Sequence record: MN445185.1
Direction: 5' to 3' (one strand)
Source of the DNA: Escherichia phage vB_EcoM_EC001
DNA length: 64,000 nt
Part shown: positions 3,301-41,860 of the stretch, in pieces
Position numbering within the stretch: position 1 is the first letter of the stretch
Layout: each line of letters begins with the position of its first letter
Program-made: the position numbers and the translations under genes
The notes under the pieces: model-generated
Seen by the model: the letters and a program-made list of their open reading frames with translations, nothing else
Told to the model about the DNA's origin: nothing
The model's database searches: none

Positions 3301-3584
3301 TGAAACTCGAAGGCTACGTTGTTACTGATAAACCTTTTGCTGAAGCCAACCTGTCGCGTTCACAGGTTGTTTATAAAGACATCGATGTGCCTGCCGAAAT
3401 CGTTAAAGCGAATCCCAGCTGGCTAATCAACCACGTTTCTTTGGAAATCACCAATCCGTTTATCAACGATCCAACCGACCCATTTGTCGACATGGGTAAT
3501 TTCCGCGATATTCTTTCCCCGCATCAATACCAGACAGTGGCACAGAAGAAAGGGAAGCTGCTCATCGAAACGTTGAGTGTGTAG
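3297..3584 (+). CDS. hypothetical protein (95 aa)
   Basis: ATGA start/stop overlap with upstream gene; AAAGGAG SD; followed by a strong terminator. Confidence 0.55.
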   Translation: MMKLEGYVVTDKPFAEANLSRSQVVYKDIDVPAEIVKANPSWLINHVSLEITNPFINDPTDPFVDMGNFRDILSPHQYQTVAQKKGKLLIETLSV

Positions 3585-3589
3585 TTTAT

Positions 3590-3630
3590 CTCCAGTAACC
3601 ACGAGGGTTACTGGAGTCCTCTTATTTTTT
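3590..3630 (+). terminator. intrinsic terminator
   Basis: 11-bp stem CTCCAGTAACC/GGTTACTGGAG, loop ACGAG, then TCCTCTTATTTTTT. Confidence 0.8.
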
Positions 3631-6702: not shown

Positions 6703-6732
6703 GAGGTAGCCTACGGGCTACCTTCTTTTTTT
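6703..6732 (+). terminator. intrinsic terminator
   Basis: AGGTAGCC-tacg-GGCTACCT then TCTTTTTTT. Confidence 0.75.
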
Positions 6733-7473: not shown

Positions 7474-9984
7474 ATGCTCAAGGTCGAACGTATCATTTTG
7501 AAAGGATTTACCGGCATGGGGTTACATGAAATCGAAACGTTTGATTTCACCCTCAAGTCCACCGTTACCATCATCCTCGGCGGTAACGGCTGCGGTAAAA
7601 CAAGCCTCCTATCTGTTTTTCTCCCCATAGCTCCAGCAAAATCTGAATTCCGTGAAGGTGGTTCTTACACTAACTACGCGTTAGTCGGGGACGACCGTCT
7701 TAAGTTTGAAGTCCTGCGTCGTGGGTCTTCTCTGTCTTGTAGTATCTTCAACATCACTAAAGGTGTTTCCGTCGTAGACTCGGTAAACGCCAAAGTTTAC
7801 AACTCCATGGTGGAGCAATTAACCGGAATCACCAAAGAAATCAAAGAGTTAATTAATGGTGAGACCTTATTAACTGACGCCACTACCGAAGTTCGTCGTA
7901 AATGGTTTACGTTAATGTCAGAATCTGATCTGACGTACGTTGTTGGTTGTTATCGTCGTCTGCGTAAACTCGCTTCCAGTTTAAGTGGGGCCATTGAGCA
8001 CACCGGCCGTAAAATCGGTGAGGCAAAAATGCGCGTGGTGGACGATGAAGAAGATCGTGCACGTTTGGAAGTTCGTTTGAAAGAACTGGACGTTGAGCTT
8101 CAGGAACTAAACCGCACCATTGAAGCGAGACCCGGTTTAGATAACGCCGTTTCGGTTGATAGTATCCGGAAACGCATTGCTTCGTTGCAACCGGCTGTAA
8201 AACTCATTATGGAGCGTTATGGTGTTCTGCCTTCTGACGAACTGATTAACGAGTTTCAAAGTCGTGTAGTTGCCTGGCGTGAGCAAGCTGCCTCTGCTGA
8301 AACTGAATGCAACATGTACAATAAAGAGTTGTCACAGCTACTGGATGAGGAGTCGCGTCAAGCGTATCTGATGCGCAACCATACCGGTCTAAAACAAACA
8401 ATCGACAGCTTAAAACAGGAACTGGCAACGTTCCAACAGAACTGGATGTTCCCGGCTCTGTTTGAAGGTACCCGCATCGATGTGGATAGCATTCAGAACG
8501 CGTTAAACGATGCCTGTAACTGGAATTTACCGTTGTCCATGCATCTGGACCAGTTAAAGACAACAGAGCGCCTGGGAGCGTTAGAGAAGCGTTTACAGGG
8601 TATGGATTTAACCTCTGCGGGTCTATCTGAAAAGCTGCAACGTTGTGAGAATGTGCTACACGGTTTATACCACGACCGTCAACACTTCTTAGAAACTGCA
8701 GAAGTTGATTGTCCACAGTGTAACCACCGTTTCCGTCCTGGGATTCGTAAGTCGTTACCTGAAATTGAAAAGGCCATCAACGATAATGAAGGTTGGAAGA
8801 AGCAGCTGAAAGACGAAATGGATAGTCTTTTGCGTGACCGCAAAGAGATTGAAGAGGACGTCCGTAGCTTACGTACGATTCGCGAAATCGTCATGTCGTA
8901 TTCCAATCATCCCGTTGTCGGTTTGTTTTTCCGTAAACTGCAGGAGCTGGATATCTTCACCACGGCGCGGGATCGTTACGGTGCCATTGCACGTGCCTTT
9001 ACTGAAGAGTTAGATTCGGCCATGATGTATCTGCGTCAATCGGCGAAGCTTGCAACAGCGGAACGGGAATGGCAAGAGGCTGTTGCCGCAGTAGGTAACG
9101 TTGATGGTGCGCTGAGCCAGAAAATTGAACATATCCGTTCACAACTGGATGGGGCTAACCGTCGACTGATAGAATACCGCAGACAAGCCAATGAGCTGGA
9201 ACGCGAAACCACCCAACTGCAACAAACCAAAGAAGCAATCGAACGTTTCCAAAAGGGCTACGAACATCTGGTATCGGAAATGAACATCTCCGTTAACAAC
9301 GTCGTGGTTCGCGAGTTGTTAAACCGACGCGAAGCGAAGCTCGATGCGTATACTTCCGCTCGTGAACGGTTTCGTCAAATGGAAGGGGCTATTGCACGTT
9401 TAGCGGAACTGGAAAAAGAGCAAGCTGAATTGCTTAAAGAGCATCACCATGCCAGATTGATTATCAATGCCGTCTCACCCGAAAAAGGATTATTGCGTCG
9501 TTACTTTTATGCTGCGATTACCCGCATCATGGATTTAATGAATCGGTATATCGAAATGGTGTGGGCATATCCGATGCAGGTTATTCCATGCGATCTAACC
9601 GACGGGGATTTGGATTATACTTTCCCGGTACGATTAAAAGACCATGAAGAACTGGTGCCGGATGTGAAGAAAGGTTCGAAGGCACAGCGTATTATCTTTA
9701 ACATGATGTTTCGTTTAACGGCGTATAAAGCGCTTGGTTTACAAAACTATCCTTTGTTATTGGATGAACCCTCTGAAGGCATGGATGAGGAACACAAAAA
9801 TCGACTGGTCAACTTCATTAAATCGTTGGCGTTGTCGGGAGAGTTTTCTCAATTGCTGGTCGTTTCGCATGAAGCGGAAGTTCATTCTAAACTTAACGAA
9901 GCCACCTACTGTGTCGTGGAGCCAGAAGGTGTAACGCTTCCACCGGTTTATAACGAAGGGGTAATAATCAAATATGCATCATAA
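7474..9984 (+). CDS. Rad50/SbcC-like SMC-family ATPase (836 aa)
   Basis: N-terminal Walker A GGNGCGKTS; long predicted coiled-coil; central CPQC (zinc-hook-like); C-terminal Walker B/D-loop LLLDEPSEGMD and VVSHE. Assigned by motif architecture only. Confidence 0.75.
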   Translation: MLKVERIILKGFTGMGLHEIETFDFTLKSTVTIILGGNGCGKTSLLSVFLPIAPAKSEFREGGSYTNYALVGDDRLKFEVLRRGSSLSCSIFNITKGVSVVDSVNAKVYNSMVEQLTGITKEIKELINGETLLTDATTEVRRKWFTLMSESDLTYVVGCYRRLRKLASSLSGAIEHTGRKIGEAKMRVVDDEEDRARLEVRLKELDVELQELNRTIEARPGLDNAVSVDSIRKRIASLQPAVKLIMERYGVLPSDELINEFQSRVVAWREQAASAETECNMYNKELSQLLDEESRQAYLMRNHTGLKQTIDSLKQELATFQQNWMFPALFEGTRIDVDSIQNALNDACNWNLPLSMHLDQLKTTERLGALEKRLQGMDLTSAGLSEKLQRCENVLHGLYHDRQHFLETAEVDCPQCNHRFRPGIRKSLPEIEKAINDNEGWKKQLKDEMDSLLRDRKEIEEDVRSLRTIREIVMSYSNHPVVGLFFRKLQELDIFTTARDRYGAIARAFTEELDSAMMYLRQSAKLATAEREWQEAVAAVGNVDGALSQKIEHIRSQLDGANRRLIEYRRQANELERETTQLQQTKEAIERFQKGYEHLVSEMNISVNNVVVRELLNRREAKLDAYTSARERFRQMEGAIARLAELEKEQAELLKEHHHARLIINAVSPEKGLLRRYFYAAITRIMDLMNRYIEMVWAYPMQVIPCDLTDGDLDYTFPVRLKDHEELVPDVKKGSKAQRIIFNMMFRLTAYKALGLQNYPLLLDEPSEGMDEEHKNRLVNFIKSLALSGEFSQLLVVSHEAEVHSKLNEATYCVVEPEGVTLPPVYNEGVIIKYAS

Positions 9985-11670: not shown

Positions 11671-11880
11671 ATGTTTCACCGTCCTGGGTTTTCAGCTTTA
11701 AACACCGATGTCTGTTGGGCTGAGTACGAACGGGCGAAGGAGTTCTTACCCGTAAATCCAAAACACATCAACGTGGGTACTATCGGGCGTGTTGCGTTTG
11801 ATGATACTCCGCTGAGTACGTGTATTAAAGCAGCGCTTGGTACGCTGCCGGCGTCTATAGTTATTGAGGAATTAAAATGA
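11671..11880 (+). CDS. hypothetical protein (69 aa)
   Basis: Start moved to ATG 11671 with GAGGAG SD 10 nt upstream. Confidence 0.5.
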   Translation: MFHRPGFSALNTDVCWAEYERAKEFLPVNPKHINVGTIGRVAFDDTPLSTCIKAALGTLPASIVIEELK

Positions 11881-12395
11881 CGGACATTCGTGTTGACATA
11901 TATGGGGAAATTCATACCACGGCCGATCGTAATCGTGTTGAATGGGCGATCATCGATAACCATCGGAAAAAACCATACGATTTTTTACTGTGTGAAGAAC
12001 TGGGGCCGTATGAATATCACACTGCAAAAGCGCAAGATAAGGCATTAAAGGAGAAGATGTACTCTATTGGGCCCATGGGGCTGGAGTTGGCTAAGAAACT
12101 CGGCATCCCTGCTATTGGGATCGATGACTGGAGCGATGCAACCTACGCTAAAGATATCAAGGATAAAAAGGGAAGGGCTGTAAACTTTAGCCGTTCTTTT
12201 TATATTCGTGAAGCTAAAATGGTTGAAAAAATTAAAAAGTATATGGCAAAAGGACGTTGTGCTGTTATGCTCGGCGACTCACACTTGCGCACCACGAAAA
12301 CCAAAGAGCTTGGTGGTGCGTCCCTTATCTGGGAAACATTTAAGGATAATCCTGAAGTGAAGTTTCACAGGAGCCCTAAACGCGAGATTGATTAA
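11877..12395 (+). CDS. hypothetical protein (172 aa)
   Basis: ATGA overlap with upstream gene; GAGGA SD. Confidence 0.6.
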   Translation: MTDIRVDIYGEIHTTADRNRVEWAIIDNHRKKPYDFLLCEELGPYEYHTAKAQDKALKEKMYSIGPMGLELAKKLGIPAIGIDDWSDATYAKDIKDKKGRAVNFSRSFYIREAKMVEKIKKYMAKGRCAVMLGDSHLRTTKTKELGGASLIWETFKDNPEVKFHRSPKREID

Positions 12396-12413
12396 ATCTA
12401 AAGGAGCATTAAA

Positions 12414-13635: not shown

Positions 13636-14358
13636 ATGTTTCGCACCATTTTATTTCTTCTGGTAGCAGTGACCACATTCAACAGCAACGCTTCTTACCA
13701 GTCCACCAGTAACAAACATCAAAAAGAATTTGTCCTTATCCAGGACCAGTTCAATGAGATTAAACCTCTCATCGTCTCTGCATCTCGAAAACAAGGCGTA
13801 CATGCCGGGATGCTTGCGACCACCATTTACCGCGAATCCCGTTTTAATAAAAACGTGGGTAAGAATAAATCGAGCAGTGCTAGTAGTGTTGTCCAAATGA
13901 CGACAGGTACTAAACGCTCCATGATACGTCTGTATGGGAAACAACTTAACATCCCAAAGAACGCAGACCTTAATAAACCGAAATATGCTGTACAGCTTGC
14001 TGCTGTTTACATGAAACACATCGAGGATCATCTGACAAAACAACTCAAACGCAAGCCGAGCACAGCCGAAATTGCATTAGGCTACCGCTTCGGTGAGAGC
14101 GCTGCTGTTGCGATGATTAAAAAGAAATCATCGGTCGGGAAACGCTGGATGGACAGCTACCGAAAAGACGCAGCATTCTACGGTGCGAAAATGACGCCAC
14201 CGAAAGCTGAAACACGTCAGCTTGCTTTTGCGAAGGAAGACCGCGACCAACGCGTCGCTGAGCTTCAGAAAATCTGGGATACGCTGTACACCAAAATATC
14301 ACCTGCGGCCGGTACACTACTGGCAAATAACACTATCATGAAAGGAGCATTGCTTTGA
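13636..14358 (+). CDS. secreted protein, possible lysozyme-like/lytic transglycosylase (240 aa)
   Basis: Signal peptide; loose SLT-like segment YRESRFNKNVG…SVVQMTTGT; preceded by a 14-codon upstream ORF. Confidence 0.55.
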   Translation: MFRTILFLLVAVTTFNSNASYQSTSNKHQKEFVLIQDQFNEIKPLIVSASRKQGVHAGMLATTIYRESRFNKNVGKNKSSSASSVVQMTTGTKRSMIRLYGKQLNIPKNADLNKPKYAVQLAAVYMKHIEDHLTKQLKRKPSTAEIALGYRFGESAAVAMIKKKSSVGKRWMDSYRKDAAFYGAKMTPPKAETRQLAFAKEDRDQRVAELQKIWDTLYTKISPAAGTLLANNTIMKGALL

Positions 14359-14948
14359 CACTCGTAACACGCCCCTGGTATCCAGGTCTTAAAACAGCCG
14401 CACAAATCACCGCCAAAGATGTCTACGAATTAATTCGCGCGGGTGCGGAACACGTTCAAACCAACCCGAACTATGTAGAGCGTCCTATCGGTGAAGTCGA
14501 TGGGGAAGCTGTCGAAGCACCGGTCTACGTTGAGTACGGCGAATGGTTCGCAGAGAACCACGGTTTCTACGACGCGTTAAACGCGGCGTTTGGTGATGAC
14601 GAAGACGAAGGTATCGAATTCGACTGGAACGTTAATCTGGCGCTGATGTGGATTTGTGGTTTACGTCCAGCAATTAACGAAACCGAAGCAGGTTTCGTGC
14701 TGACCTGGCGACAGTCGGCAGGTTACGATAAAGGTCTCGACTTCAAACAGGCGTATATGGATGTGTCGATTGCACTGCAGAAACTGTTCTTCGGCGACCG
14801 TGCTTTCTGCCAGCTCAGCTGGTTGACCATCCTGGAAAAACTGGCAACGTGTCACAAACTGTGGCGAGCAGAAGATGCCCCAGAACATCTGTTCGTGCTC
14901 GAATACGCAGTGGTACCAAACCAGCCGTTCTTTGAGGCCGAAGCGTAA
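14355..14948 (+). CDS. hypothetical protein (197 aa, TTG start)
   Basis: TTG start overlapping upstream stop (TTGA) with AAGGAG 7 nt upstream; no in-frame ATG for ~97 codons; terminator follows. Confidence 0.6.
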   Translation: MTLVTRPWYPGLKTAAQITAKDVYELIRAGAEHVQTNPNYVERPIGEVDGEAVEAPVYVEYGEWFAENHGFYDALNAAFGDDEDEGIEFDWNVNLALMWICGLRPAINETEAGFVLTWRQSAGYDKGLDFKQAYMDVSIALQKLFFGDRAFCQLSWLTILEKLATCHKLWRAEDAPEHLFVLEYAVVPNQPFFEAEA

Positions 14949-14953
14949 TTAAC

Positions 14954-14986
14954 GGTCAGACCTTCGGGTCTGACCACCTTTTATTT
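14954..14986 (+). terminator. intrinsic terminator
   Basis: GGTCAGACC-ttcg-GGTCTGACC then ACCTTTTATTT. Confidence 0.8.
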
Positions 14987-14999
14987 AATTCTTGGATGT

Positions 15000-15266
15000 G
15001 TGTTCGTGAAACGTTTAATAAATTTTCTCTACTGGATGGAGAAACGCTATAGCCACAACATTCCGATGATGTATAGTTTGTTATTCTCCACGGTAATGTT
15101 GGTAATCGGTGCGATAGTCGCGCATTTGATGGAACTCACCACTCCATGGGCGCAGCTTTTTCTCACCATCTGGATGTTGTTCTCAGGCTACCACATACGT
15201 GGTTTCATAACCCGATTCTTTCGCTGGCGTAGTACCTGGCATGTCTTTAATTCCGACCGTAACTAG
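15000..15266 (+). CDS. small membrane protein (88 aa; start uncertain)
   Basis: Hydrophobic ORF with two predicted TM segments; GTG 15000 or ATG 15036. Confidence 0.45.
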   Translation: MFVKRLINFLYWMEKRYSHNIPMMYSLLFSTVMLVIGAIVAHLMELTTPWAQLFLTIWMLFSGYHIRGFITRFFRWRSTWHVFNSDRN

Positions 15267-15326
15267 TTTTTTACAGCAGTAACTAATCATCTGAAAATAC
15301 CATTGACTTTTATAAGGACTATTAAC

Positions 15327-16460
15327 ATGAAATTTCCAATTTCCGTAATCGAAGATATGGCTCGTGTAGTACGTGACCGTGCGTATGTGCTTAGCTACGA
15401 AGGTATTCGTGCATATTCAGAAGCTCTGATTGCACAACACGTCACTGGCACCGGTGTTATCAACCCGGATCTTTACAATGCGCTGGTCGATAACAATGTG
15501 GAGGCTTATCTGCCGCTGCCGCACCTGCGTAATAAGTTGTGCCTTTCTTCTCAAACTCTTCAGTTTGATAACCTGCCACCACTGAAATATTCGCCAGATG
15601 ACCGTTGGGGAAGTATGCTGGGCATGGCTTTCCAAAATTGCCACGCGCCTTATAACTGGTCTATTCTCGTTGAAGGTGTTGATGGTGTCTGGTATGCCAT
15701 TGCACATTCTGACGAATTCTTCTTCGAGCCAGGTGAACTGATTAAACCCGTAAGTGCTCCACATGGTCGTGTTAAGGTTGGGCATTGTTACATTGAATTG
15801 ACTCATGTCCAGTGGACTATCGAAGACTGGCGTGCTGCCTCCGTTATCTTCGGTGACGGTAAACCACACTCAGTTACTTTCGAGCGTTGCGAAGCAGTGC
15901 ATGTTGAAGAGCCTGACAATGACGAAGTGGGAGATCGTTACGCGCCGCTGGAAGAGTGTCGTAACATCGCGAACATCGACTGGGTGAAAGTCTTTACGGC
16001 CAACCCCGGTTTCCGTGGTCAGACTATCAACCCCGGCGAAGTAACCTGGGAAGGTTTCGTACAACTCGCAGATAAACTCGGTTATGACGTGTGGGATTAC
16101 ACCTACAAACGTCCATACCCGAATGCGTCAGAAGATGAAGACCACGATGAAATCATTCTGGAAAACTTGGCTGATATCGAAAATGTGTTTATTGACGACG
16201 AAATCTTTGTTACCCTCGGTATCGAACGTCCAAAATCAACAGCTTATCCGGTATCGGTTGCCAGTGTGATTCAGGAACTGGGCAAAATGCAGGAGCAGAC
16301 TGTCGAAGTGAAAATCGACGAAGAGCAAATGCAGATTGTTGCGCAGGTACAGAAAACTCTGAACCTGGATAAACTGTACGCTGAAATCCGCAAGCTGCCG
16401 AAAAAGAAACGTACTGCTGCCACAATCAAAGCAATGGTCCGCGACATCATCGGCAAATAA
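15327..16460 (+). CDS. hypothetical protein (377 aa)
   Basis: Start moved from track ORF 15303 (TTG) to ATG 15327 (AAGGA SD); acidic C-terminal region; ends at a bidirectional terminator. Confidence 0.7.
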   Translation: MKFPISVIEDMARVVRDRAYVLSYEGIRAYSEALIAQHVTGTGVINPDLYNALVDNNVEAYLPLPHLRNKLCLSSQTLQFDNLPPLKYSPDDRWGSMLGMAFQNCHAPYNWSILVEGVDGVWYAIAHSDEFFFEPGELIKPVSAPHGRVKVGHCYIELTHVQWTIEDWRAASVIFGDGKPHSVTFERCEAVHVEEPDNDEVGDRYAPLEECRNIANIDWVKVFTANPGFRGQTINPGEVTWEGFVQLADKLGYDVWDYTYKRPYPNASEDEDHDEIILENLADIENVFIDDEIFVTLGIERPKSTAYPVSVASVIQELGKMQEQTVEVKIDEEQMQIVAQVQKTLNLDKLYAEIRKLPKKKRTAATIKAMVRDIIGK

Positions 16461-16479
16461 TGCGATAAAAAATAAAAGC

Positions 16480-16516
16480 CTACCTACTCCCTTGGGAGTA
16501 GGTAGTTCTTTTTTTC
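16480..16516. terminator. bidirectional intrinsic terminator between convergent genes
   Basis: 11-bp stem CTACCTACTCC/GGAGTAGGTAG, loop CTTG; T-run downstream and A-run (AAAAAATAAAAG) upstream. Confidence 0.8.
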
Positions 16517-16517
16517 T

Positions 16518-17141
16518 TTAATTTGTTAACCCGTTATCTTTCAGGATTTTCAACATCGCATCATTCAACGCCTGCAGTTCTTGATTCTGCTTAGTGAGTG
16601 TTGCAACTTGTTCTGTCAGAGGAACCTGCTCACGGATTTTGGCTTTACGCACCGCTTCCATTTGCAAGTGTTCTTCTTCCGTCACCGTCCCTTCGTAATC
16701 CATCGATGTGATGTCCACACGTGCATCGATTCCTAAACCGCGTTCTAAGATGCTTTTCAGGTCGTTCGTTAGCAGTGTGACATCGACGTATTCGGGTATT
16801 AATGCCAGGTCAATAACCACCACATTGCGTCTATAATTTAACCCGTTCAGTCCAGGATACGTCTCAATGTACGTATCAGGCAACTCGTAGACTTGACCGT
16901 CCCTCGACTTTAATGTTACAATCGAGGCTTCGACATTAGCGTCGCTGATATAGTCGTCACGAGTTAGGCCGACAGGTTTATAATACTTGTTATAAACGTC
17001 AATATTATTACGTTGGAGTTTCGGAAAGTTCTGTACCGCGTCAACACGGTAAATCACTTTATCTGGCAACGTATAAGGTGCCTTAACCTTGAACAACCCC
17101 TCAAGGTTAACCTGAGGCGTGTTAGGCAACAGTTGTGCCAT
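16518..17141 (-). CDS. hypothetical protein (207 aa)
   Basis: Minus-strand ORF with AAGGAGGG SD directly after the upstream gene's stop; ends at the bidirectional terminator. Confidence 0.65.
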   Translation of the reverse strand: MAQLLPNTPQVNLEGLFKVKAPYTLPDKVIYRVDAVQNFPKLQRNNIDVYNKYYKPVGLTRDDYISDANVEASIVTLKSRDGQVYELPDTYIETYPGLNGLNYRRNVVVIDLALIPEYVDVTLLTNDLKSILERGLGIDARVDITSMDYEGTVTEEEHLQMEAVRKAKIREQVPLTEQVATLTKQNQELQALNDAMLKILKDNGLTN

Positions 17142-17151
17142 TTAACCCTCC

Positions 17152-18531
17152 TTAGGCTTTTGGCTCTGCCGCAGGAACATCCCAAATGGCCTTACGGGCC
17201 AAGACACGATATTCCACGTTATCGAATTCGAAGACGTAGAAGTAAACGTTAGGATCAACGTCGTCTACGAGCTTCACGATATCCAACGGGGTGGAGTGCG
17301 GATGGTACTCTTCGGCTGCAATTAACGCCTGGAAGAACAGATCCAACCACTCGGTGGTTTTCTTCGACATTCTCGCAATATCCGCATTATTAGTGCCGAT
17401 TAATGCGTAGTCAGGAATTGTGTCATGCAGGGTCGTTTTGCGTGAATCGTTTTCAGGGCCAGCGATAACCACGGCGTTCAACGATTTATAGATGGACGGT
17501 AAATCCGTTACATCGGTAGTTGGAATCGAGATCGCTCCACTATTTTTTTCCGTAATGGTTTGAACAGTCCACTCCCCAAATCGGGAGATTGCTTTGACCC
17601 AGAAATCATATGGGAGAATCGGCGAGTATAATGCCGCAACATCTTCCTCATTTGGAATCCCACGAATTGACCAACCGGGAACAATTGTGAACTTGGTGGT
17701 CGTAAAGATTTCTGGGAACACTTTGACACCCAACGCCACAGTAAAACTGGAGTTTGCCAAAATGTAATCACGTAACGCTTGTTTAATCCTGCTCGGGTTA
17801 CGACCCGCGCGTCCGTAGATGATAGCCGACATCGGTATCGGTAAGGTGGAGTCAAAGTCTTCCTGGTCGTGCCAAGTATAGATGTTAGTAATCAGGCTAG
17901 TGTACGGATAACCGTCAGCTAATTCGTTAATCTTATTATGGTGATCCGGAAGGTTGAACCCTTCCATTGCCTTTTCGACTACAGATTTCACAGCCAAGAA
18001 AGTATCAACCGGTAATATCGGCATTTGGACTTCAATTTCAAATCCAGTATAGTCCTGATTGAAATCTTCATCAGCAAACCAGAGAATAATCTGGTTATTT
18101 ACATCAGACGGGTCTTCGACTTTATCTGCTGTGGTTTCAAGTTTCCAACTGACCCAACGTGGGAACCAGTTACTGTTAGTCTGAATCATCGCGCCAGACT
18201 GAACACCGCTGATGACACTATTAAATTGCCCCAACAGCAAACGCTGGAATTCAACTTCGTCGTTTCTTAAGTTGCCCAGGATAGACTGTTGGTAGATCCA
18301 TTGGGAAACAGTAAGAACGTGGTCGCTAAAGACGGCCGGGGTCTTAATAGGCAACTCGTCACGTTTAGAAGTAAAAGCAACCAGTTCCACCTGCAGATTT
18401 TCTTTAGTAAAATACTGCTTGCTTTTAGCGAACGAATATGACAGCTCAGACAACTCACCTACCGGAGCGGTGTTGCCAGGGCCATTATCAATCAGAGCCG
18501 CTATTTGAATAAAGCCTTGTAAATCATACAT
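17152..18531 (-). CDS. hypothetical protein (459 aa)
   Basis: Long minus-strand ORF; GGAGAG SD 9 nt upstream; first gene of a two-gene minus operon. Confidence 0.7.
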   Translation of the reverse strand: MYDLQGFIQIAALIDNGPGNTAPVGELSELSYSFAKSKQYFTKENLQVELVAFTSKRDELPIKTPAVFSDHVLTVSQWIYQQSILGNLRNDEVEFQRLLLGQFNSVISGVQSGAMIQTNSNWFPRWVSWKLETTADKVEDPSDVNNQIILWFADEDFNQDYTGFEIEVQMPILPVDTFLAVKSVVEKAMEGFNLPDHHNKINELADGYPYTSLITNIYTWHDQEDFDSTLPIPMSAIIYGRAGRNPSRIKQALRDYILANSSFTVALGVKVFPEIFTTTKFTIVPGWSIRGIPNEEDVAALYSPILPYDFWVKAISRFGEWTVQTITEKNSGAISIPTTDVTDLPSIYKSLNAVVIAGPENDSRKTTLHDTIPDYALIGTNNADIARMSKKTTEWLDLFFQALIAAEEYHPHSTPLDIVKLVDDVDPNVYFYVFEFDNVEYRVLARKAIWDVPAAEPKA

Positions 18532-18555
18532 AATTAAAAACTCTCCGAGGTGAGC

Positions 18556-19065
18556 ATGATAGCATCAGTTTTCAAACTGCTTCCATTCTTACAGATGCTG
18601 TGGGAAGCATTTAAACCGGGCGAGGGGGAGAAAGTAACACGAGCCGGGAAGATAGTGACACTAGTGATAGTGGCACTGGTCGCGTTCTCTGCATTTGTCT
18701 CATATGCCTATATTGTTCAATACCACACACTGGTTAGCGTCCAATCGCGTACTCAGTATCTGGAGATATCCTATAAGGAGCTAAAAGAGAAGTCCGATCA
18801 TGGCGAAGTGGAGAACAATAAGCTGTACGATCGTCTCTTCACATGCCTGGGTTCTCGATCGCCATATGATGGTACCAAATCTCCAACAGGGACAGGCACT
18901 GGGGCCGCGGTTCCGCCTGAAGAACTCAAGCCGGTAACACCACAGGCACCGTTAAATCCGTCTAGCCCGCCTGCCAAGAAACACCAGGCGGCTTCTCGCC
19001 CAGTGGGGTCGCAGGCGGCAAACGATTTCCGACAGGAGATTATCAAGACGCTTAATAATCCATGA
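18556..19065 (+). CDS. membrane-anchored protein, possible i-spanin-like (170 aa)
   Basis: Start moved to ATG 18556 (GAGGTG SD); one N-proximal TM helix, then charged/coiled segment and Pro-rich C-terminus. Confidence 0.55.
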   Translation: MIASVFKLLPFLQMLWEAFKPGEGEKVTRAGKIVTLVIVALVAFSAFVSYAYIVQYHTLVSVQSRTQYLEISYKELKEKSDHGEVENNKLYDRLFTCLGSRSPYDGTKSPTGTGTGAAVPPEELKPVTPQAPLNPSSPPAKKHQAASRPVGSQAANDFRQEIIKTLNNP

Positions 19066-19554: not shown

Positions 19555-19559
19555 AAACT

Positions 19560-19597
19560 CCCTCTTACCTTCGGGTAAGAGGGGATTTCCTTTTTTA
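19560..19597 (+). terminator. intrinsic terminator
   Basis: CCCTCTTACC-ttcg-GGTAAGAGGG then GATTTCCTTTTTTAC. Confidence 0.8.
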
Positions 19598-19642: not shown

Positions 19643-20362
19643 ATGACCTATCCTAAAATTCTGCCTGTTTTAACGCCCACCGTTGTTGTTGGGACGGACT
19701 TAGAGACCCTGGCTTTACGTCCAGATGCCTACATCTTAACGTTGGCAAACGTGGCATTCGATGTTCCGACAATGAAAATGATCGGTTCATGTTACCACAA
19801 AATCGACCCCAATGATGCAAAAGCAAAAGAAATCTTCTACATCGATCCACAAACGGTCGGTTATTGGGAAGGTAAAGGCGACCCCGAATACGCACCGAGC
19901 GAGAAAGCACGTATTGAAGCGTTTTCTGGGACCACACCACTGCCAGAAGCACTGTGGGCGGCCAAAAAATGGTTGGATGATCTGGGCAACGTGAAAATGG
20001 TTATCACCATGCGCGGTCCCGATTTCGATGCTCCAATTCTGATGAACGCATTTGCACAGTGCGATATCCCGCCGGGCAAGTACCGCAAGTTTTCTATTTT
20101 GGACTCTGACCGGACTGCAGAACGTATTGCATATGCGTTTGGCTTGGAACCTAACTGGCACGCAGAAGCCCACCACTGGACCCGTGGCAAAGAAGCGTAC
20201 GAGCATAACGCTAACTTTGATGCTGCGAAGGAAGCGTATTCTACGGCACGCATCTATCATTTGGCCCTGGTCGCGCGTACGTACGGCTTCGAACGCATGT
20301 TAGAAGCCCACCGCGAAATGTGCACAGGTGAATACATTCCACCGCAGTTGCGAGGAGAATAA
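19643..20362 (+). CDS. DEDDh-family 3'-5' exonuclease (239 aa)
   Basis: Exo I-like VVGTDLET (D-x-E), Exo II-like GPDFDAPILMNAF, Exo III-like HNANFDAAKEAY (H-x4-D). Confidence 0.65.
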   Translation: MTYPKILPVLTPTVVVGTDLETLALRPDAYILTLANVAFDVPTMKMIGSCYHKIDPNDAKAKEIFYIDPQTVGYWEGKGDPEYAPSEKARIEAFSGTTPLPEALWAAKKWLDDLGNVKMVITMRGPDFDAPILMNAFAQCDIPPGKYRKFSILDSDRTAERIAYAFGLEPNWHAEAHHWTRGKEAYEHNANFDAAKEAYSTARIYHLALVARTYGFERMLEAHREMCTGEYIPPQLRGE

Positions 20363-24759: not shown

Positions 24760-25298
24760 AAATATTCATTGATTTACTCGATGACGAATTTCGCGAAATA
24801 TTTCCAGCGGCGTTGTTCGAGTTTAAACGCAAGTGTGAAGACTATCTAATACCGAAGAATATCGATCGTCAGCACCTCGCCGGGCTTATCTCTGCGGCGT
24901 ACGTCAACATCGCGGTAAATGAAGTTCATCAACTCGCCCAGCGTATTGCGTGTTTCGAATACAACGACGAAGACATTGAAGACGGCTTCCTGCAGTCTAA
25001 GATGGGTCGCTTCTCACTCGAACTCAAGACCGATGAAGTTATTGATAAGGTCGGTAAAGCGTTTGATGAAATGAAAGACATCGAAATGATGATTAAAATG
25101 TCTGGACCGGAAGCTGGGCCGTTGAAAGAAGCGTGGGAAAATCTCAACCGCGAAGGGTATAAAAAGATGTATATGGAGGAGTTCACCACTATGCTACGTC
25201 ATCTCGAAGCGCAGATCTGGGAGCATATCGTTTCACGTCTGAAAGAAATACTGATTGTGGTCGAACCAATGCAGCCCATCACTATTGGCAATTTCTAG
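24756..25298 (+). CDS. hypothetical protein (180 aa)
   Basis: ATGA overlap with upstream gene; terminator follows. Confidence 0.6.
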   Translation: MKIFIDLLDDEFREIFPAALFEFKRKCEDYLIPKNIDRQHLAGLISAAYVNIAVNEVHQLAQRIACFEYNDEDIEDGFLQSKMGRFSLELKTDEVIDKVGKAFDEMKDIEMMIKMSGPEAGPLKEAWENLNREGYKKMYMEEFTTMLRHLEAQIWEHIVSRLKEILIVVEPMQPITIGNF

Positions 25299-25302
25299 TT
25301 AA

Positions 25303-25337
25303 ACGGACACTCTTCGGGGTGTCCGTAGTTTTATTTT
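25303..25337 (+). terminator. intrinsic terminator
   Basis: ACGGACAC-(tcttcggg)-GTGTCCGT then AGTTTTATTTT, running into the TTAATCGACCATTA motif. Confidence 0.7.
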
Positions 25338-25349
25338 AATCGACCATTA
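25336..25349 (+). promoter_or_regulatory. conserved 5'-leader motif TTAATCGACCATTA
   Basis: Directly after terminator T-run; ends 18 nt before ATG 25367. Confidence 0.35.
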
Positions 25350-25366
25350 ATCTAAAGGAGTATTAA

Positions 25367-26290
25367 ATGGACAGCTTTCTTTTTGATTTGGCAGAATCGG
25401 TAAATGTAGATGTAATCGGTATGCGCGAATCCCCGAGTAATTTCTTAAACGGTCTTACTAAAATCGACGAACGTGTGAAATCCAGAAGTGGAGATCCCGC
25501 CATCATCGAGCAATACGCAATAGCCCATTGTGGCGAGATAGGCCAGCACTTTATACCGATTGAGGCGTTCCTAAAGAACTGCTTCGCCGAAGAATGCACC
25601 GCAGACTTCCTGTCTCTTGCCTACGGCTGGCGATACGGGGGTATCCAAATGGAATTTGATCTTAATATTTTTGAACAAGTTCTACTTGGCGACGTTCTCA
25701 CTGAGATACCACGCAGCTGGATAGACAAGATTCCCGGTTGGGCCGTCTCCTTTTCAGTGTGCTATCGCGCTAAAGATATCGGTATCCAAGAAAAGACTTA
25801 CGTTTTCGGTCGGCGAATGTTTAAAGGGAAAGATTGTTTAACAATGATGATTTTTGGAAAACGTATCGAGGGGGAAACCTTTGAAATCGTGGACGTGGGT
25901 GACGGCTTTGTATCCTTGCGTGTGGCGGAAACTGGTACGCCGGCCAATGAGAAAACGTTACGCATTGTCGGCGCTACCATGTTTACATTCTCACTGATCC
26001 CGCACAACCCTACACCCGTCAAACTGAGACAATTAACTGGAAAGAAACGTATCGCCAATTACCACATTGAACCAAAATCTAAACCGACTGTCCTCTCCAC
26101 CGTAAAAGCACAAAGCGAGTATCTTGAAGAATTTGATACTGATACGGAGAAAAGAACACAAGGTAGCAGATGTGCGCATATGCGTCGTGCACACTGGTGT
26201 ACTTACTGGCTCGGTCCACGTGACGGGAATCGGACAAAGATTTTGAAATGGATACCGCCGACATTTGTCAACGGTTCTAAATGCAAATAA
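25367..26290 (+). CDS. hypothetical protein (307 aa), Cys/His-rich C-terminus
   Basis: AAAGGAG SD preceded by TTAATCGACCATTA motif; C-terminal RCAHMRRAHWC…SKCK could bind metal (speculative). Confidence 0.65.
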   Translation: MDSFLFDLAESVNVDVIGMRESPSNFLNGLTKIDERVKSRSGDPAIIEQYAIAHCGEIGQHFIPIEAFLKNCFAEECTADFLSLAYGWRYGGIQMEFDLNIFEQVLLGDVLTEIPRSWIDKIPGWAVSFSVCYRAKDIGIQEKTYVFGRRMFKGKDCLTMMIFGKRIEGETFEIVDVGDGFVSLRVAETGTPANEKTLRIVGATMFTFSLIPHNPTPVKLRQLTGKKRIANYHIEPKSKPTVLSTVKAQSEYLEEFDTDTEKRTQGSRCAHMRRAHWCTYWLGPRDGNRTKILKWIPPTFVNGSKCK

Positions 26291-26301
26291 AATAAAGCCT
26301 A

Positions 26302-26345
26302 CCCACTCCCCTTATGGGAGTGGGTAATGCTTATTTTTTTTTTAT
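26302..26345. terminator. bidirectional intrinsic terminator between convergent genes
   Basis: CCCACTCCC-cttat-GGGAGTGGG; long T-run downstream, A-run upstream; flanks nearly identical to the terminator at 16480. Confidence 0.8.
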
Positions 26346-27097
26346 TTTTTGTTTGCTTTCAGGGTCTTGAGGCGATCACCGGTTACGTTCAGGCATTCTG
26401 TCAGTTCATTAATCTGTTTCATAAACAGTCCGAACAGCTCAACCCAGTCAGCACCCATGTCAGCCATTTTCACTAACTCTGCCGCCACATTAGGATGGAC
26501 TTGTGAATTAGAGATAATGTCTACAGAGACGTTGATGCTTTCAACTGTACGGTCAATACTTTTCTGAAGTTTCTTAGTCACTTCCAGGTTCAGCGCTTTG
26601 GCACGATTAAATGCAACATCGATCTCGCCCGCGCTGTGGTAGGTCTTTTCAATCGGACGCTGGTCAATGACGTTGTTGGTATACGACTTCGCCAGTTTCT
26701 CAACCAGATCTTTTGGATTGATATTTTTCAGCGGGTAGTTCAGGTCTTTGAACTTAAACCCAATCGGCAGAGTTAACATGCCCAGGTCATGGGTCATCGC
26801 ACCGAAACGTTTATCGATGGGTGTTAAAACCCCTTCCTGAATCTTCTGGAGCACAGCCCATACAGATTCCAACCGTTCTATGTGGTCCATCACATACGTG
26901 TTGAAGCCCGGAGGTACGGGTACAAGCATTCCGGTAAAGTTTAAAAACTTCTCTTGCTGCATCCACTTGGACACATCAGACATGTCGTCATAGGTGGTCA
27001 GCGCGAGTTCCTGTTGAGAGCCGCTAAAGGCTTTAGGCAGAATCGTGGATGCTTTGGCAACAAAGCCCGACAACGCTGCAAGTGGATTAACATTCAT
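26342..27097 (-). CDS. hypothetical protein (251 aa)
   Basis: Minus-strand ORF with GAGGT SD; ends at a bidirectional terminator shared with the upstream plus gene. Confidence 0.65.
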   Translation of the reverse strand: MNVNPLAALSGFVAKASTILPKAFSGSQQELALTTYDDMSDVSKWMQQEKFLNFTGMLVPVPPGFNTYVMDHIERLESVWAVLQKIQEGVLTPIDKRFGAMTHDLGMLTLPIGFKFKDLNYPLKNINPKDLVEKLAKSYTNNVIDQRPIEKTYHSAGEIDVAFNRAKALNLEVTKKLQKSIDRTVESINVSVDIISNSQVHPNVAAELVKMADMGADWVELFGLFMKQINELTECLNVTGDRLKTLKANKK

Positions 27098-29049: not shown

Positions 29050-29325
29050 ATGCGTTATCAGAAAGATATTGTAGAGCGTCTGTGTCTGGGTCTCGCTGGT
29101 ATTAGCCAGGAACTTAGCACCGCGTTCCATAACGAGTTCTCAGCACCGCGACATGCACTGTCTGAATTTAGTCATCAGGTAAATGCCCATTACGGCAACC
29201 TGATTAATGATAAACCGAAGGTTGATGCGGTCGGTGTGCCTGAACACAATGAAGATATCCCGTACTGGATTGAAGACCTGGAACGTGTGGTTCTTCCAGT
29301 GCTCCGTGAGAGGATGAAAAAATGA
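29050..29325 (+). CDS. hypothetical protein (91 aa)
   Basis: GAGGA SD; follows a terminator. Confidence 0.5.
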   Translation: MRYQKDIVERLCLGLAGISQELSTAFHNEFSAPRHALSEFSHQVNAHYGNLINDKPKVDAVGVPEHNEDIPYWIEDLERVVLPVLRERMKK

Positions 29326-29990
29326 GATTAGACCCGGCACGGCGAAAAAAAGCAGAAGCTTATGCTTTACAGTTACTGAACTTAGTTGACCCGACCGGGA
29401 TTAACGCGGAAGCTGCCAAGCGCGCTTTCTCACGAATGTCTGACGAAGAGTTCAATCGTCTGCGCGAAGGGTTGCCTGTTTACAACCCAACTGGCGGCAA
29501 GGTCAAAATTGACCATATGCGCAATATTAAAATTTGCGAAGCGATGGGACTGAGCTTGTGTCAGCGCCTGTGGCTCACGGAACCGAAAACCGGTATCCTA
29601 CAACGTACCCGTTACCCCCATTTAGTCTTCCGCCTGCCTGCACGTCGCCAGACGCAGATGCAAGAGAAGAAAATGGCGGTGGCGAAGAACGATAAAGTCC
29701 GCGATAAACTCTCAGGTCAGGTAGTAGGTCCTTCCAAAGCTTCGGGTGTTTCGTTTCCAGAAGCCTACATCATGTACTCGGATGGACACGACTCAACGCT
29801 CCAGGAGTTCCTGTGGGCGCGTGGTGGTAACGATACGTTACAACGTGCGTTCTATCAATCGCTACGGCAAACCGGTAAAGGTCGCATCAACCTGGAAGGG
29901 GCTGAGCGTACCAGTTCAAAAGCGCCGCGTACATGGTCTTCGTACTTTAAAGCAATGCACATCGGTAACAACTTAGGACGCCCGGAATGA
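29322..29990 (+). CDS. hypothetical protein (222 aa)
   Basis: ATGA overlap with upstream gene. Confidence 0.6.
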   Translation: MRLDPARRKKAEAYALQLLNLVDPTGINAEAAKRAFSRMSDEEFNRLREGLPVYNPTGGKVKIDHMRNIKICEAMGLSLCQRLWLTEPKTGILQRTRYPHLVFRLPARRQTQMQEKKMAVAKNDKVRDKLSGQVVGPSKASGVSFPEAYIMYSDGHDSTLQEFLWARGGNDTLQRAFYQSLRQTGKGRINLEGAERTSSKAPRTWSSYFKAMHIGNNLGRPE

Positions 29991-30715
29991 GATTAGGACG
30001 CCGTTTCTTAGTCGATATCGACACAATCTTCGATACACGAATTGGTTGGGCGAAAGTGTTGCAGCCTGATGTATTAGAGAAGCTTGATTTAGAAGTGTAT
30101 CGGATGCGGTTCACAGATGCGTGGGCCGAAGTGGTAGGAATTCAGGACTGGAATAAAAAGTTCGCGGAGCGTGATAAACGCGCGTTGCAGAACGCGCAGC
30201 CAACAGAAATGTTGCTTACGCTAAAGAACGAAGTACAGGCAATGTTAATGACGATACAGATGCACGCTCCTATCGAGCGACCTGTCTTAACGTTTAACCT
30301 GTGGCCATACGCTGATCTCGATGATGAAGAACGTCATGCGTTTTTGGAAGAACTGCGTTACTACTATAACGAAGTGCAAGTAGACGTCGTTGTTATTCCT
30401 CACAGCGATCTTACACCAGGGCGACTTGCTTCGGCGTGGGACGGTTGGATAATGTACGATTGGTATCCGTGGATAGAACAACACGCGAACCATTTCCAGA
30501 AACCGATTCCGGATTTTACGATTACCCGACCGAGTATGCTGACCAGCGAATTAACGGAAGAAGCAATCGCGCAAATAAAAAGAGATAAGGTGAACCCCTT
30601 TAAGGAGTCCACCCGTTTTCTTGCTCAATACGTCGGTACTGACGTAAAGGACACTGCGCTGTTTAGTCTTCGTCGTCATCAGCAGGACGACGACTCGCAA
30701 ACGCAGACGCCATGA
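29987..30715 (+). CDS. hypothetical protein (242 aa)
   Basis: ATGA overlap with upstream gene; 3' end overlaps a convergent minus ORF. Confidence 0.6.
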   Translation: MRLGRRFLVDIDTIFDTRIGWAKVLQPDVLEKLDLEVYRMRFTDAWAEVVGIQDWNKKFAERDKRALQNAQPTEMLLTLKNEVQAMLMTIQMHAPIERPVLTFNLWPYADLDDEERHAFLEELRYYYNEVQVDVVVIPHSDLTPGRLASAWDGWIMYDWYPWIEQHANHFQKPIPDFTITRPSMLTSELTEEAIAQIKRDKVNPFKESTRFLAQYVGTDVKDTALFSLRRHQQDDDSQTQTP

Positions 30716-31133
30716 TCTGGTCAACGTCAATCTTTTCGCCTACTGGTGCCAACTCACCTTCTTTCGGAGGCCGTACTGCGGCAATCTGTGGGACGGTGGG
30801 TTGGTATCCGTTATTTAAATCTTCTTCATCGTCGTGACGTTTGATACCAACGCCTGCACGAGTCATTAAGAAGCCGTTTAAACTGTTGGCCAAATCTTGA
30901 GTCGCCTCAGCGCCTTTCTCAGCAGCTTTAATTTTCCGCTTCGTCATGACCTGTTTGTCGATGCCGTTGATTAGGCGTTCGATTCGGTCGACGGCTTTTA
31001 AGTCTTTGTGTACTTCACCGTCGTTCACCATATCTGTGACGAGCTTAACGCGTAGCTGTTGTGTTTGGCGGAGAAGCGAATCTTCGTTGTCCACATCTCC
31101 GTCGAACGCTTGGTATTTCACTTCTTCGCTCAT
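30663..31133 (-). CDS. hypothetical acidic protein (156 aa)
   Basis: Minus-strand ORF with GAGGT SD; 53-nt convergent overlap with the plus gene, so one of the two 3' ends may be wrong. Confidence 0.45.
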   Translation of the reverse strand: MSEEVKYQAFDGDVDNEDSLLRQTQQLRVKLVTDMVNDGEVHKDLKAVDRIERLINGIDKQVMTKRKIKAAEKGAEATQDLANSLNGFLMTRAGVGIKRHDDEEDLNNGYQPTVPQIAAVRPPKEGELAPVGEKIDVDQIMASAFASRRPADDDED

Positions 31134-35414: not shown

Positions 35415-35420
35415 GTCGTG

Positions 35421-35455
35421 CCCTCTCCTTCGGGAGAGGGTATCTTTATTTTTTA
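35421..35455 (+). terminator. intrinsic terminator
   Basis: CCCTCTCC-ttcg-GGAGAGGG then TATCTTTATTTTTT. Confidence 0.8.
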
Positions 35456-35472: not shown

Positions 35473-35835
35473 ATGCAAATCGGCTTCTTCTTTAATCGTC
35501 ACGGAATCGTGTTTGTTTGTGGTGTTCCGGATAGTGACGGGAGACGTGTACGCACGTTAGAACTCGACGAAACATCTATGGTCGAGTGGAAAGAGAAACT
35601 TGCTCCCTTCGCAGAAGGTAAGTTTCAACTGCTGCAGCTCTACACGCAAGCTGCATCACCACGCGTTGCTTTCTCCCGACTTGGAGACGGCGAAGACACC
35701 ACACATCTGGTTATCTTCAGTGGGCAGCCTGGTCGTGTATTGAGCGAATTATTGATGGGATTCAATCCGCCTAGCAAGCCCAGGATGAATACGTACAATG
35801 TGCACGACAGTAGCCAAATTCTTATTCTTCGATAA
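35473..35835 (+). CDS. hypothetical protein (120 aa)
   Basis: TTAAGGAG SD. Confidence 0.55.
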   Translation: MQIGFFFNRHGIVFVCGVPDSDGRRVRTLELDETSMVEWKEKLAPFAEGKFQLLQLYTQAASPRVAFSRLGDGEDTTHLVIFSGQPGRVLSELLMGFNPPSKPRMNTYNVHDSSQILILR

Positions 35836-36303: not shown

Positions 36304-37156
36304 TATTATTCAGCAGACTCAGGCGGTTGATGATTGGTACCGGCAAGCGAAGATTTACCAATACGGGACACGCGAGCAGCAGCTAGCCAAGTTCTATCGC
36401 ACATTAGGCGACGTCGCTGAAGGTGTGCAGAAGATGGACAACTTGAAAGTGGCGGCGGCCATGGGTCGCTCTCTTTGGGCGTTCGTTGGTCTGTTGCACT
36501 TCGGCAAGCACACGAACGTGGGAGATTTCGTTATTCCACTGGATGCAGCTATAAAAGACCGCACCACGGGAAACACCAAAGAGTTCCGTCTTCATAACCT
36601 TTTTGTTGTTGCCACCGAAGTGGTTGGACTCATATTGCAAGATGAGCACGAGCCCCACAGCTACGTTACCGAGCTGCATAGTTTGGCGCGACAATACCGA
36701 ATGTTGGCGCGTATCTGCGGCCTGGAATTCGGCCGTGTAATATACAACGGACATCGTGTGCTAATCAACACGAAAGGTGAAATGAACGGCATCGGGTTGT
36801 TTGTTCCCGCGTCTGATGATTTTACTGGCGATAAATTGCCTGGTTCTAGACAGATGTCTGGGCCAGCCATCTGTCTGATGTTCCAGACTGTCCTGGACAG
36901 TTGTGTCGCTACGCACCTTGCGCCCTATTGCCACCGGCCGTTTAAACGCGACGAGTTGCCGACAATCAATGCTGCACTCGCAACTACGTTAAACGAACTG
37001 CTGGACAAATATGTTCGTGACTCAGTGCGCTGGAATCGTATCCTGTTCGAACGTGTACCTGAAATAACCGCAGCCTACACAGATGGCGGTGTGAATGTGG
37101 TGATGAATGATGATCTACTTTACTTATTTGAAAGCTTAAAGAGGGATAGTATCTAA
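36296..37156 (+). CDS. hypothetical protein (286 aa)
   Basis: Start moved from track ORF 36230 to ATG 36296 (CAGGAGGA SD); stop overlaps thyA start. Confidence 0.6.
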
Positions 37157-41449: not shown

Positions 41450-41846
41450 TTACGATGAATACGCTGATCGTTTACTGGTCAACAATATCGTCTGGGAAGA
41501 CCACGGTCTAATGCCATGGCATCTGAAATTCCTAGCGGAGCGTTCAGAACAATGCGGTGGTTTGGAGTTCGTACTTACCGACACACCAATTCCGGTACCT
41601 CACATTGCGCCGGTAGAAAATTTGTACTTCTTCGATGCTAATGTGAAGTTATTACAGCAGGTACTCTATACGCATGATTGGCGTGGCGGTTGTCAGTTCC
41701 CAGAGAACGTTTTAAAGCTCTCTGAACGCTTCGGCACCGACATTGCGTACTGTCAAACGTTCCCAAAAGACTTGGGACGAAACAGCGTGGTGCTGTGGTA
41801 TTACCCTCCGGTAGAAGATATCGTAAAAGTGATTATCGAACGCTAA
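41424..41846 (+). CDS. hypothetical protein (140 aa)
   Basis: Start moved from track ORF 41409 to ATG 41424 (GAGGCG SD); ends at a bidirectional terminator. Confidence 0.55.
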   Translation: MAKKLFTVDYDEYADRLLVNNIVWEDHGLMPWHLKFLAERSEQCGGLEFVLTDTPIPVPHIAPVENLYFFDANVKLLQQVLYTHDWRGGCQFPENVLKLSERFGTDIAYCQTFPKDLGRNSVVLWYYPPVEDIVKVIIER

Positions 41847-41860
41847 AAAATAAAAGCAAA

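Follow-up and report, generated by a model that had tools for sequence, protein, structure and literature searches.

We analysed a 64,000-nucleotide stretch of Escherichia phage vB_EcoM_EC001 (sequence record MN445185.1), referred to here as the window, in which three short hairpin elements (sites 1, 2 and 3) lie between the ends of convergent genes. The elements are probably bidirectional intrinsic (factor-independent) terminators of an SPN3US-like jumbo phage, a reading to which we give a probability of about 0.8. We infer termination, and the polymerase that would carry it out, from the anatomy, placement, conservation, covariation and consensus of the elements, all of which are shown here. 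The proposed function is an ordinary one and follows the same recipe as the experimentally mapped terminators of phiKZ.

SPN3US is a phiKZ-like phage, and phages of this kind possess their own split multisubunit RNA polymerases and do not need the host RNA polymerase. We propose that transcription of the plus-strand gene and of the convergent minus-strand gene would both enter one perfect palindrome, and that the RNA of either strand would form the same 10-12 bp hairpin with a U-rich tract directly after it. The downstream T-tract would serve plus-strand transcripts and the upstream A-tract minus-strand transcripts. Hairpin and U-tract together would release a bacterial-type multisubunit RNA polymerase, which may be the phage's own virion or non-virion enzyme; a phage polymerase is proposed because phiKZ-like phages are independent of the host enzyme. 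Terminators placed in this way would block antisense reading from each unit into the other, the minus-strand units being virion structural genes. A few exact stems are re-used at unrelated loci, and the likeness of sites 1 and 2, together with that of the site 3 A-tract to the one at site 1, would arise because the terminators of this clade follow a narrow consensus.

Anatomy of the three sites

All three sequences that the initial annotation had called terminators were found in place when the sequence was read directly. Open reading frame coordinates at the three junctions put each of them where a plus gene meets the 3′ end of a minus gene, and a T-run on one side with an A-run on the other was present at every site. 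The parts of each element are as follows.

16467-16477, unstranded: site 1 A-tract, AAAAAATAAAA; its reverse complement GCUUUUAUUUUUU is the U-tract of the minus-strand transcript
16480-16505, unstranded: site 1 hairpin, CTACCTACTCCC-TT-GGGAGTAGGTAG; a perfect palindrome with an effective tetraloop of CUUG (plus) or CAAG (minus)
16506-16519, plus: site 1 T-tract, TTCTTTTTTTCTTT; reaches into the minus-gene stop codon at 16518-16520
26285-26296, unstranded: site 2 A-tract, AAATAAAATAAA (reverse complement GGCUUUAUUUUAUUU); overlaps the plus-gene (307 aa) stop codon
26300-26326, unstranded: site 2 hairpin, TACCCACTCCC-CTTAT-GGGAGTGGGTA; apart from the loop, one compensatory base pair separates it from site 1
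26331-26350, plus: site 2 T-tract, TTATTTTTTTTTTATTTTTT; overlaps the minus-gene stop codon at 26342-26344
41845-41855, unstranded: site 3 A-tract, AAAAAATAAAA, within the 13-mer AAAAAATAAAAGC as at site 1
41861-41884, unstranded: site 3 hairpin, CGAGTACCCC-GTTA-GGGGTACTCG; stem unrelated to sites 1 and 2
41891-41901, plus: site 3 T-tract, TTATTTTTTTT; just ahead of the minus-gene stop codon at 41903-41905

At all three sites the stop codons of the plus and minus genes are 55-60 nt apart, and the hairpin plus its tracts occupies nearly all of that space. The stems are perfect, 10-12 bp long with 6-7 G-C pairs, and close on loops of 4-5 nt. Perfect stems of this kind are rare by chance: shuffled junctions gave P ~0.004-0.007 per junction for at least 8 bp and ~0.0005 for at least 10 bp. 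The six strand versions fold as RNA with energies of -20.6 to -28.3 kcal/mol (z = -5.0 to -9.0), and none of 200 shuffles was as good. T counts in the 10 nt after the stem were 9 (plus strand) and 7 (minus strand) at site 1, 6 and 6 at site 2, and 5 and 7 at site 3, and TTAT occurs in the tail in five of the six strand directions. A terminator scan placed the three sites among the top hairpins of the window on both strands.

The initial annotation described the sites as near-identical. This holds for sites 1 and 2, whose local alignment scores 53 over ~50 nt (5000 shuffles reached at most 26, and pairwise comparison of all 12 terminator-like hairpins in the window gave a median of 16), but not for site 3. 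The T/C and A/G differences pointed out between sites 1 and 2 turn out to be the two sides of one base pair, and hence a compensatory change. Site 2 reads AAAATAAAGCC, with one A fewer than the string quoted as common to both. An A-tract was said to be shared as well; the 13-mer is indeed present at sites 1 and 3, but only at those two. Window-wide, the A-tract 11-mer was not above chance (31 of 100 shuffles contained at least as many matches), and a search of the whole window with the 16-mer stem, allowing up to 3 mismatches, returned sites 1 and 2 only, with no further copies. An Rfam scan of the whole window gave no family at gathering score.

Conservation of structure across jumbo phages

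The three junctions were compared in 11 phages of three genera: seven close Seoulvirus members, the distant SPAsTU and pEa_SNUABM_29 (SNUABM29), Erskinevirus Asesino and Wellingtonvirus pEa_SNUABM_11 (SNUABM11). A perfect hairpin of 8-13 bp with both tracts was present at 33 of 33 orthologous junctions, made from 10 distinct stems, and the sites lie between convergent stop codons likewise in all 11 phages. In places the sequence itself is held: Seoulvirus and Asesino genomes are ~72-84% identical where alignable, yet their site 1 stem is identical, as it is in 10 of the 11 phages overall. At site 3, Asesino carries CGAGTAGCCC/GGGCTACTCG, a compensatory change from C-G to G-C. Where the sequence has been replaced (SaP7, SPAsTU, SNUABM29 and SNUABM11), the architecture is retained. 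The site 2 hairpin is CCTCCCACCTACC in SaP7 and CTGCCTACCC(C) in SPAsTU and SNUABM29, with the layout kept, and SNUABM11 has ACCCAC(T/C)(C/T)C stems at all three orthologous junctions (8640-8692, 19706-19748 and 35729-35782). The SNUABM11 stems include that of site 3, which is unrelated in Seoulvirus; terminator turnover or concerted evolution within the genome could account for this.

When the ten stems were set on a common frame, 98.9% of cells were paired, a percentage that is partly so by construction, as the hairpins compared were the best at each junction; eight of nine pairs had changed on both sides, and there were zero G-U pairs. The lack of G-U pairs is as expected, because such a palindrome must fold on both strands. 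The SPN3US genome has several unidirectional terminators with internal G-U pairs, in numbers too small for a test. Stems of this type would be held almost unchanged because a two-strand palindrome cannot pass through G-U intermediates.

A genome-wide terminator consensus

The whole SPN3US genome was assembled for a census of junctions and hairpins. A central hairpin with A- and T-rich flanks is present in 14 of its 17 convergent junctions. We then took 54 SPN3US hairpins whose stem measures 8 bp or more and is followed by a T-rich tail, and used 246 hairpins without such a tail as the control. The pyrimidine fraction of the 5′ arm was 0.66 in the T-tailed set and 0.49 in the tail-less set (Mann-Whitney p = 1e-7), the inner 5′ arm was G-less in 29/54 against 13/246, and TTAT occurred within the 14-nt tail in 30/54 against 2/246. 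A TTCG loop was found in 20 of the 54 T-tailed hairpins, whose tail profile reads YTTTTTATTTT with an A peak at +7. In the clade consensus, the 5′ arm is rich in pyrimidines and mostly lacks G, the 3′ arm is rich in purines, the loop is often UUCG, and the U-tract includes UUAU.

At sites 1 and 2 the pyrimidine fraction of the 5′ arm is 0.82, and at site 3 ~0.55-0.6. Sites 1 and 3 share their A-tract because, read on the minus strand, it equals the consensus tail GCUUUUAUUUUUU; this U-tract of the other strand is all that site 3 has in common with site 1. Further hairpins of the same style occur elsewhere in the window.

19559-19584, plus: TCCCTCTTACC-TTCG-GGTAAGAGGGG, a terminator in this style that lies between co-directional genes
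25303-25326, plus: unidirectional terminator, ACGGACACTC-TTCG-GGGTGTCCGT, bordering the variable 307-aa gene cassette on its left
35418-35443, plus: CCCTCTCC-TTCG-GGAGAGGG, a terminator in this style; Asesino and phiKZ have this hairpin too

Relation to experimentally mapped terminators

Terminators have been mapped in two relatives. ONT-cappable-seq of phiKZ defined 133 termination regions; six overlapping bidirectional regions lie between convergent genes, and 61 predicted intrinsic terminators share the motif 5′-BCCYCCCCHWWDGGGRRGGBYTTATKYYGT-3′ (PMC10914365). For 201phi2-1, 132 termination sites were reported, 15 of them bidirectional; the main motif is phiKZ-like, and eight terminators were verified in vivo (PMC11512511). 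We read the convergent junctions of phiKZ directly from a 50-kb stretch. They have the form cataa-CCCCTCTCC-gcat-GGAGAGGGG-ctatg and cataat-GCCCTCCC-attac-GGGAGGGC-ttatg, with the tail motif on both sides, and use CCCTCTCC- and GCCCTCCC-type stems. The phiKZ hairpin core motif CCYCCCCHWWDGGGRRGG, at up to 3 mismatches, has 9 matches in the window against 1.66 expected, and 20 against 0.68 expected in the phiKZ stretch. The window matches include the inner part of site 2 (2 mismatches) and the hairpin at 35422.

The window elements resemble the phiKZ and 201phi2-1 terminators in the pyrimidine-rich 5′ arm, the purine-rich 3′ arm, the short loop that is often UUCG and the UUAU tail, as well as in their many copies per genome and in the bidirectional versions between convergent genes. 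All come from the same phage group, with multisubunit phage RNA polymerases and host-independent transcription, and the hairpin CCCTCTCC-TTCG-GGAGAGGG is literally shared between the window and phiKZ. They differ in that stems here are 10-12 bp against ~7 in phiKZ and include A-T pairs (TACC..GGTA), and that the tail here is YUUUUAUUUU against YUUAUG; moreover, 3′ ends were mapped in phiKZ, whereas those proposed here are predicted from sequence. The SPN3US-type terminators therefore appear to be a longer-stemmed, more A-T-containing version of the phiKZ/201phi2-1 class. The view of the initial annotation that the elements are bidirectional terminators agrees with all of their sequence features, their placement, the structure conservation in 11 phages and the mapped class in phiKZ and 201phi2-1, with termination itself being the predicted part.

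A comparable set is known from Bacillus cereus, in which bidirectional terminators are more conserved than unidirectional ones (PMC5381666). Like the window sites, these combine one hairpin with A-tract and T-tract flanks between convergent genes, have stems with Watson-Crick pairs only, and show the stronger conservation. The window sites differ in that they probably serve phage-encoded polymerases and in using a very small repertoire of exact stems.

Inversion of hairpin loops between close relatives

Between genomes that are 95-99% identical, hairpin loops have been swapped for their own reverse complement.

6712-6715, loop of the hairpin at 6704-6723: TACG; flipped in Lh1B
16491-16494, site 1 loop: CTTG in the window, JN03 and 1252; CAAG in SPN3US, Lh1B, SaP7 and Proteus phage 7
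26311-26315, site 2 loop: CTTAT in the window and JN03; GTAAG in SPN3US, Lh1B, Proteus phage 7 and 1252, that is, a flip plus one substitution
41871-41874, site 3 loop: GTTA in the window, SPN3US, SaP7 and 1252; TAAC in JN03 and Proteus phage 7

All four combinations of site 1 and site 3 loop states occur, and the flips are therefore recurrent or have been reshuffled by recombination. Template switching during replication is known to leave inverted loops between perfect arms (PMC8794818), and the flips seen here are probably the result of such switching within perfect palindromes. The published cases likewise involve loops that are reverse-complemented between close relatives, as at sites 1, 2 and 3 and at 6704-6723; they concern rRNA and miRNA genes, whereas here the inversions affect phage terminators and are frequent among 95-99% identical genomes. 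No flip was seen in five UUCG-loop hairpins across the same genomes, which fits selection for the tetraloop in the transcribed direction.

Mosaic boundaries and the 307-aa gene cassette

The initial annotation raised the possibility that the terminators also act as recombination points. Compared with SPN3US, the window carries an extra 1 kb at 25276-26285, consisting of the 307-aa gene and its own upstream terminator at 25303-25326, and this segment ends at the site 2 A-tract. The gene is present in the window, JN03, Lh1B, SaP7 (as a divergent allele with a different hairpin) and Asesino, and absent from SPN3US, Proteus phage 7, 1252, SPAsTU and SNUABM29. In addition, megablast homology to SPAsTU begins precisely with the A-tracts of site 1 (16467) and site 2 (26285). 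Mosaic boundaries thus do adjoin sites 1 and 2, which is circumstantial support. However, the best alignment of the SPN3US junction is that of a deletion between TTCTA(A/G) microhomologies, which lie where the two adjacent genes end, and hairpin-to-hairpin recombination as the origin of this indel was rejected. Indels at 11849-12401 and 36361-37157 are not at hairpins, and any gene end is a permissive location for a breakpoint. We regard the recombination-point idea as weakly supported. A further difference, an extra ~225 bp of SPN3US at window 3562-3579, lies directly beside a terminator-like hairpin at 3590-3616.

The arrangement recalls PeSL, the promoter-terminator stem-loop cassettes of T4-like phages (PMC2839356, PMC4122927), which are likewise repeated short regulatory stem-loops bordering variable genes, as the 307-aa cassette adjoins site 2. 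The differences are that no promoter component was identified at the window sites, that the repeats here are only ~25-45 nt, and that the dissected deletion junction is the TTCTA microhomology and not the repeats. Sigma-70-like promoter patterns in a scan of the window were at chance level. Given the TTCTA junction, the hairpin-free indels and the permissiveness of gene ends, PeSL is a resemblance and not a demonstrated mechanism.

The last 52 residues of the 307-aa protein match the anti-CRISPR AcrVA2 (PDB 7ci1, E = 0.004), the two sharing the motif H-x-RR-x-HW..YW.G...W.P..FVN; the protein had no Pfam, NCBIfam or PADLOC match.

Re-use of exact stems and alternative explanations

Several observations weigh against the reading of these elements as intrinsic terminators built to a consensus. 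The pairing percentage across the ten stems is in part built in, as stated above; site 3 is a weak fit to the pyrimidine-arm consensus; sites 1 and 3 have no match to the phiKZ IUPAC motif within 3 mismatches; and a literature search found no 3′-end or transcriptome data for SPN3US-like phages. Finally, exact stems recur too often: in the 34 terminator loci whose stems reach 10 bp or more, identical 10-nt inner arms formed 4 pairs against 0.016 expected from position-specific composition (0/2000 simulations). A shared consensus is therefore not the whole explanation.

The CCCTCTTACC stem occurs at SPN3US 67345, 94154 and 180981, the last of which corresponds to window 19559; the three CCCTCTTACC-TTCG-GGTAAGAGGG hairpins (window 19559-19584 and SPN3US 67345 and 94154) sit at unrelated co-directional junctions with unrelated flanks. 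The ACCCACTCCC stem is found at SPN3US 137590 and 186744, the latter being site 2. The former (NC_027402 137590-137620, TTACCCACTCCC-CTTAC-GGGAGTGGGTAA), at the gp108/gp107 convergent junction, is a third near-identical copy of the site 2 type, and a ACCCACTCC-TTCG hairpin follows gp168 at NC_027402 92500-92522. The likeness that the initial annotation took for a family is real, but it belongs to a genome-wide terminator consensus of the clade, with these near-identical copies (SPN3US 137590 and 92500) outside the window. In IMG/VR contigs, the exact site 1 stem was found 12 times, on 8 contigs of which seven measure 145-277 kb, at most 3 per contig and with differing loops and flanks, and the 9-bp site 2 core at 37 places, at most 4 per contig, with both an A- and a T-tract at 20 of the 37. 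Copies are alike within the hairpin only, their flanks being unrelated apart from A/T-richness. The base pair distinguishing site 1 from site 2 is retained in Asesino too, and ongoing homogenisation of the two sites by gene conversion was rejected on that ground. The two stems appear to have coexisted since before the split of Seoulvirus and Erskinevirus. We take these data to mean that preferred stems form a small repertoire of long standing, upheld by sequence-specific selection or by occasional copying.

Such re-use would also be expected if the near-identical hairpins were a mobile or copy-paste element, with termination secondary: a PeSL-like cassette, a REP- or MITE-like palindrome, or the product of ectopic gene conversion or template switching, spreading within and between jumbo-phage genomes and mediating module exchange. 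The excess of identical stem pairs at unrelated loci and the dispersal of the site 1 stem and site 2 core over IMG/VR contigs speak for this, as do the ACCCAC(T/C)(C/T)C stems of SNUABM11 at all three junctions, the mosaic boundaries adjoining sites 1 and 2 and the PeSL precedent in T4-like phages (PMC4122927). We nevertheless think it unlikely: identity ends at the hairpin, with nothing beyond the A/T consensus common to the flanks; neither terminal repeats nor target duplications turned up, and no enzyme was seen in association with the copies; the pair that separates site 1 from site 2 persists from Seoulvirus to Erskinevirus, with no homogenisation; and the SPN3US deletion beside site 2 joins at the TTCTA microhomology. 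Quite improbable, in our view, is that the hairpins are mainly stabilisers or processing sites of RNA 3′ ends, arising by read-through and 3′-5′ exonuclease trimming, or that a phage factor binds the stem to cause or regulate termination. Conservation of the stem sequence itself and its narrow repertoire across genera would allow for recognition by a factor, a 3′-5′ exoribonuclease homologue is encoded in the window (SPN3US annotation), and antitermination mechanisms were proposed by the authors of the 201phi2-1 study (PMC11512511). On the other hand, a U-tract that follows the stem immediately, as seen on either strand, is the hallmark of intrinsic termination and would be needless for a mere stabiliser, eight 201phi2-1 terminators were strong in a reporter without any phage factor (PMC11512511), and ten different stems serve the same three junctions.

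The palindromes could also act as DNA, as protein operators or as signals for replication, recombination or packaging, with their position at gene ends incidental. They are perfect palindromes at the DNA level, the loop flips between close relatives imply DNA hairpins or template switching at these places, and the phage encodes SbcC/SbcD-like proteins. But the sites occur essentially only between gene ends and carry strand-appropriate U-tracts, their stems are replaced by unrelated sequence while the structure is kept, which fits a signal in RNA structure and not a sequence-specific DNA site, and the arms are generally too short for stable cruciforms. We consider this extremely improbable.

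The window, its relatives and the flanking genes

In a megablast search with 14000-19000, full-length matches to Salmonella jumbo phages were 97-99% identical and included JN03 (98.9%) and SPN3US (97.3%), along with SEGD1, the SPFM and SPLA series, Proteus phage 7 and Escherichia phage Lh1B; Erwinia jumbo phages were more distant matches. By these similarities the window can be assigned to an SPN3US-like (Seoulvirus) jumbo phage, and it corresponds to ~161-225 kb of the 240-kb SPN3US genome. Several SPFM records are matched only in numerous short fragments (40 pieces, ~49% covered), which points to poor assembly in places, and the T-tract that follows the site 2 hairpin contains N bases in the Lh1B record. 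Annotation of relatives at matching positions places genes for beta-type RNA polymerase subunits at 29322-29990, 51899-53512 and 53531-57736. The genes that end at the three sites are listed below.

15303-16460, plus: gene ending at site 1; 385 aa, phrog_11818, no function assigned
16518-18531, minus: unit whose 3′ end lies at site 1; codes for a DUF7194 protein of 207 aa and a virion structural protein of 459 aa
16518-17141, minus: open reading frame next to site 1; stop codon 16518-16520
25367-26290, plus: gene ending at site 2; 307 aa, phrog_6160, variably present, AcrVA2-like C-terminal motif
26342-27097, minus: gene ending at site 2; 251 aa, phrog_4682, stop codon 26342-26344
41409-41846, plus: gene ending at site 3; 145 aa, phrog_9256
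41903-51869, minus: unit ending at site 3, of late structural type; codes for a virion structural protein of 183 aa (DUF7941), a protein of 753 aa and a tail fibre protein of 2373 aa
41903-42454, minus: open reading frame next to site 3; stop codon 41903-41905

A fourth convergent pair in the window, 29987-30715 (plus) and 30663-31133 (minus), overlaps by 53 nt (30663-30715) and lacks an intervening hairpin; one that resembles a minus-strand terminator is found at 30588-30614, within the 3′ end of the plus gene. Positions 7474-9984 (plus) code for an SMC/SbcC-like protein, and SPN3US also has an SbcD-like protein. An SbcC-like hairpin-processing nuclease and many perfect palindromic terminators thus coexist in one genome.

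Implications

These results extend the phiKZ/201phi2-1 terminator motif to enterobacterial jumbo phages. The consensus, together with a list of operon ends, is now usable for the SPN3US group, and strong two-way terminators could serve as insulator parts. It is possible, though unlikely, that the tiny repertoire of exact stems recurring across loci and genera (for example CTACC(T/C)ACTCC and CCCTCTTACC) means sequence-specific recognition or copy-paste of hairpins. In the former case, the terminator would be recognised by the phage RNA polymerases or by a phage termination or 3′-end factor; in the latter, template switching would actively copy and paste hairpins and leave the frequent loop flips as a trace. 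The recurrence of stems and the flipping of loops provide a simple system for studying how palindromic signals persist or are replaced.

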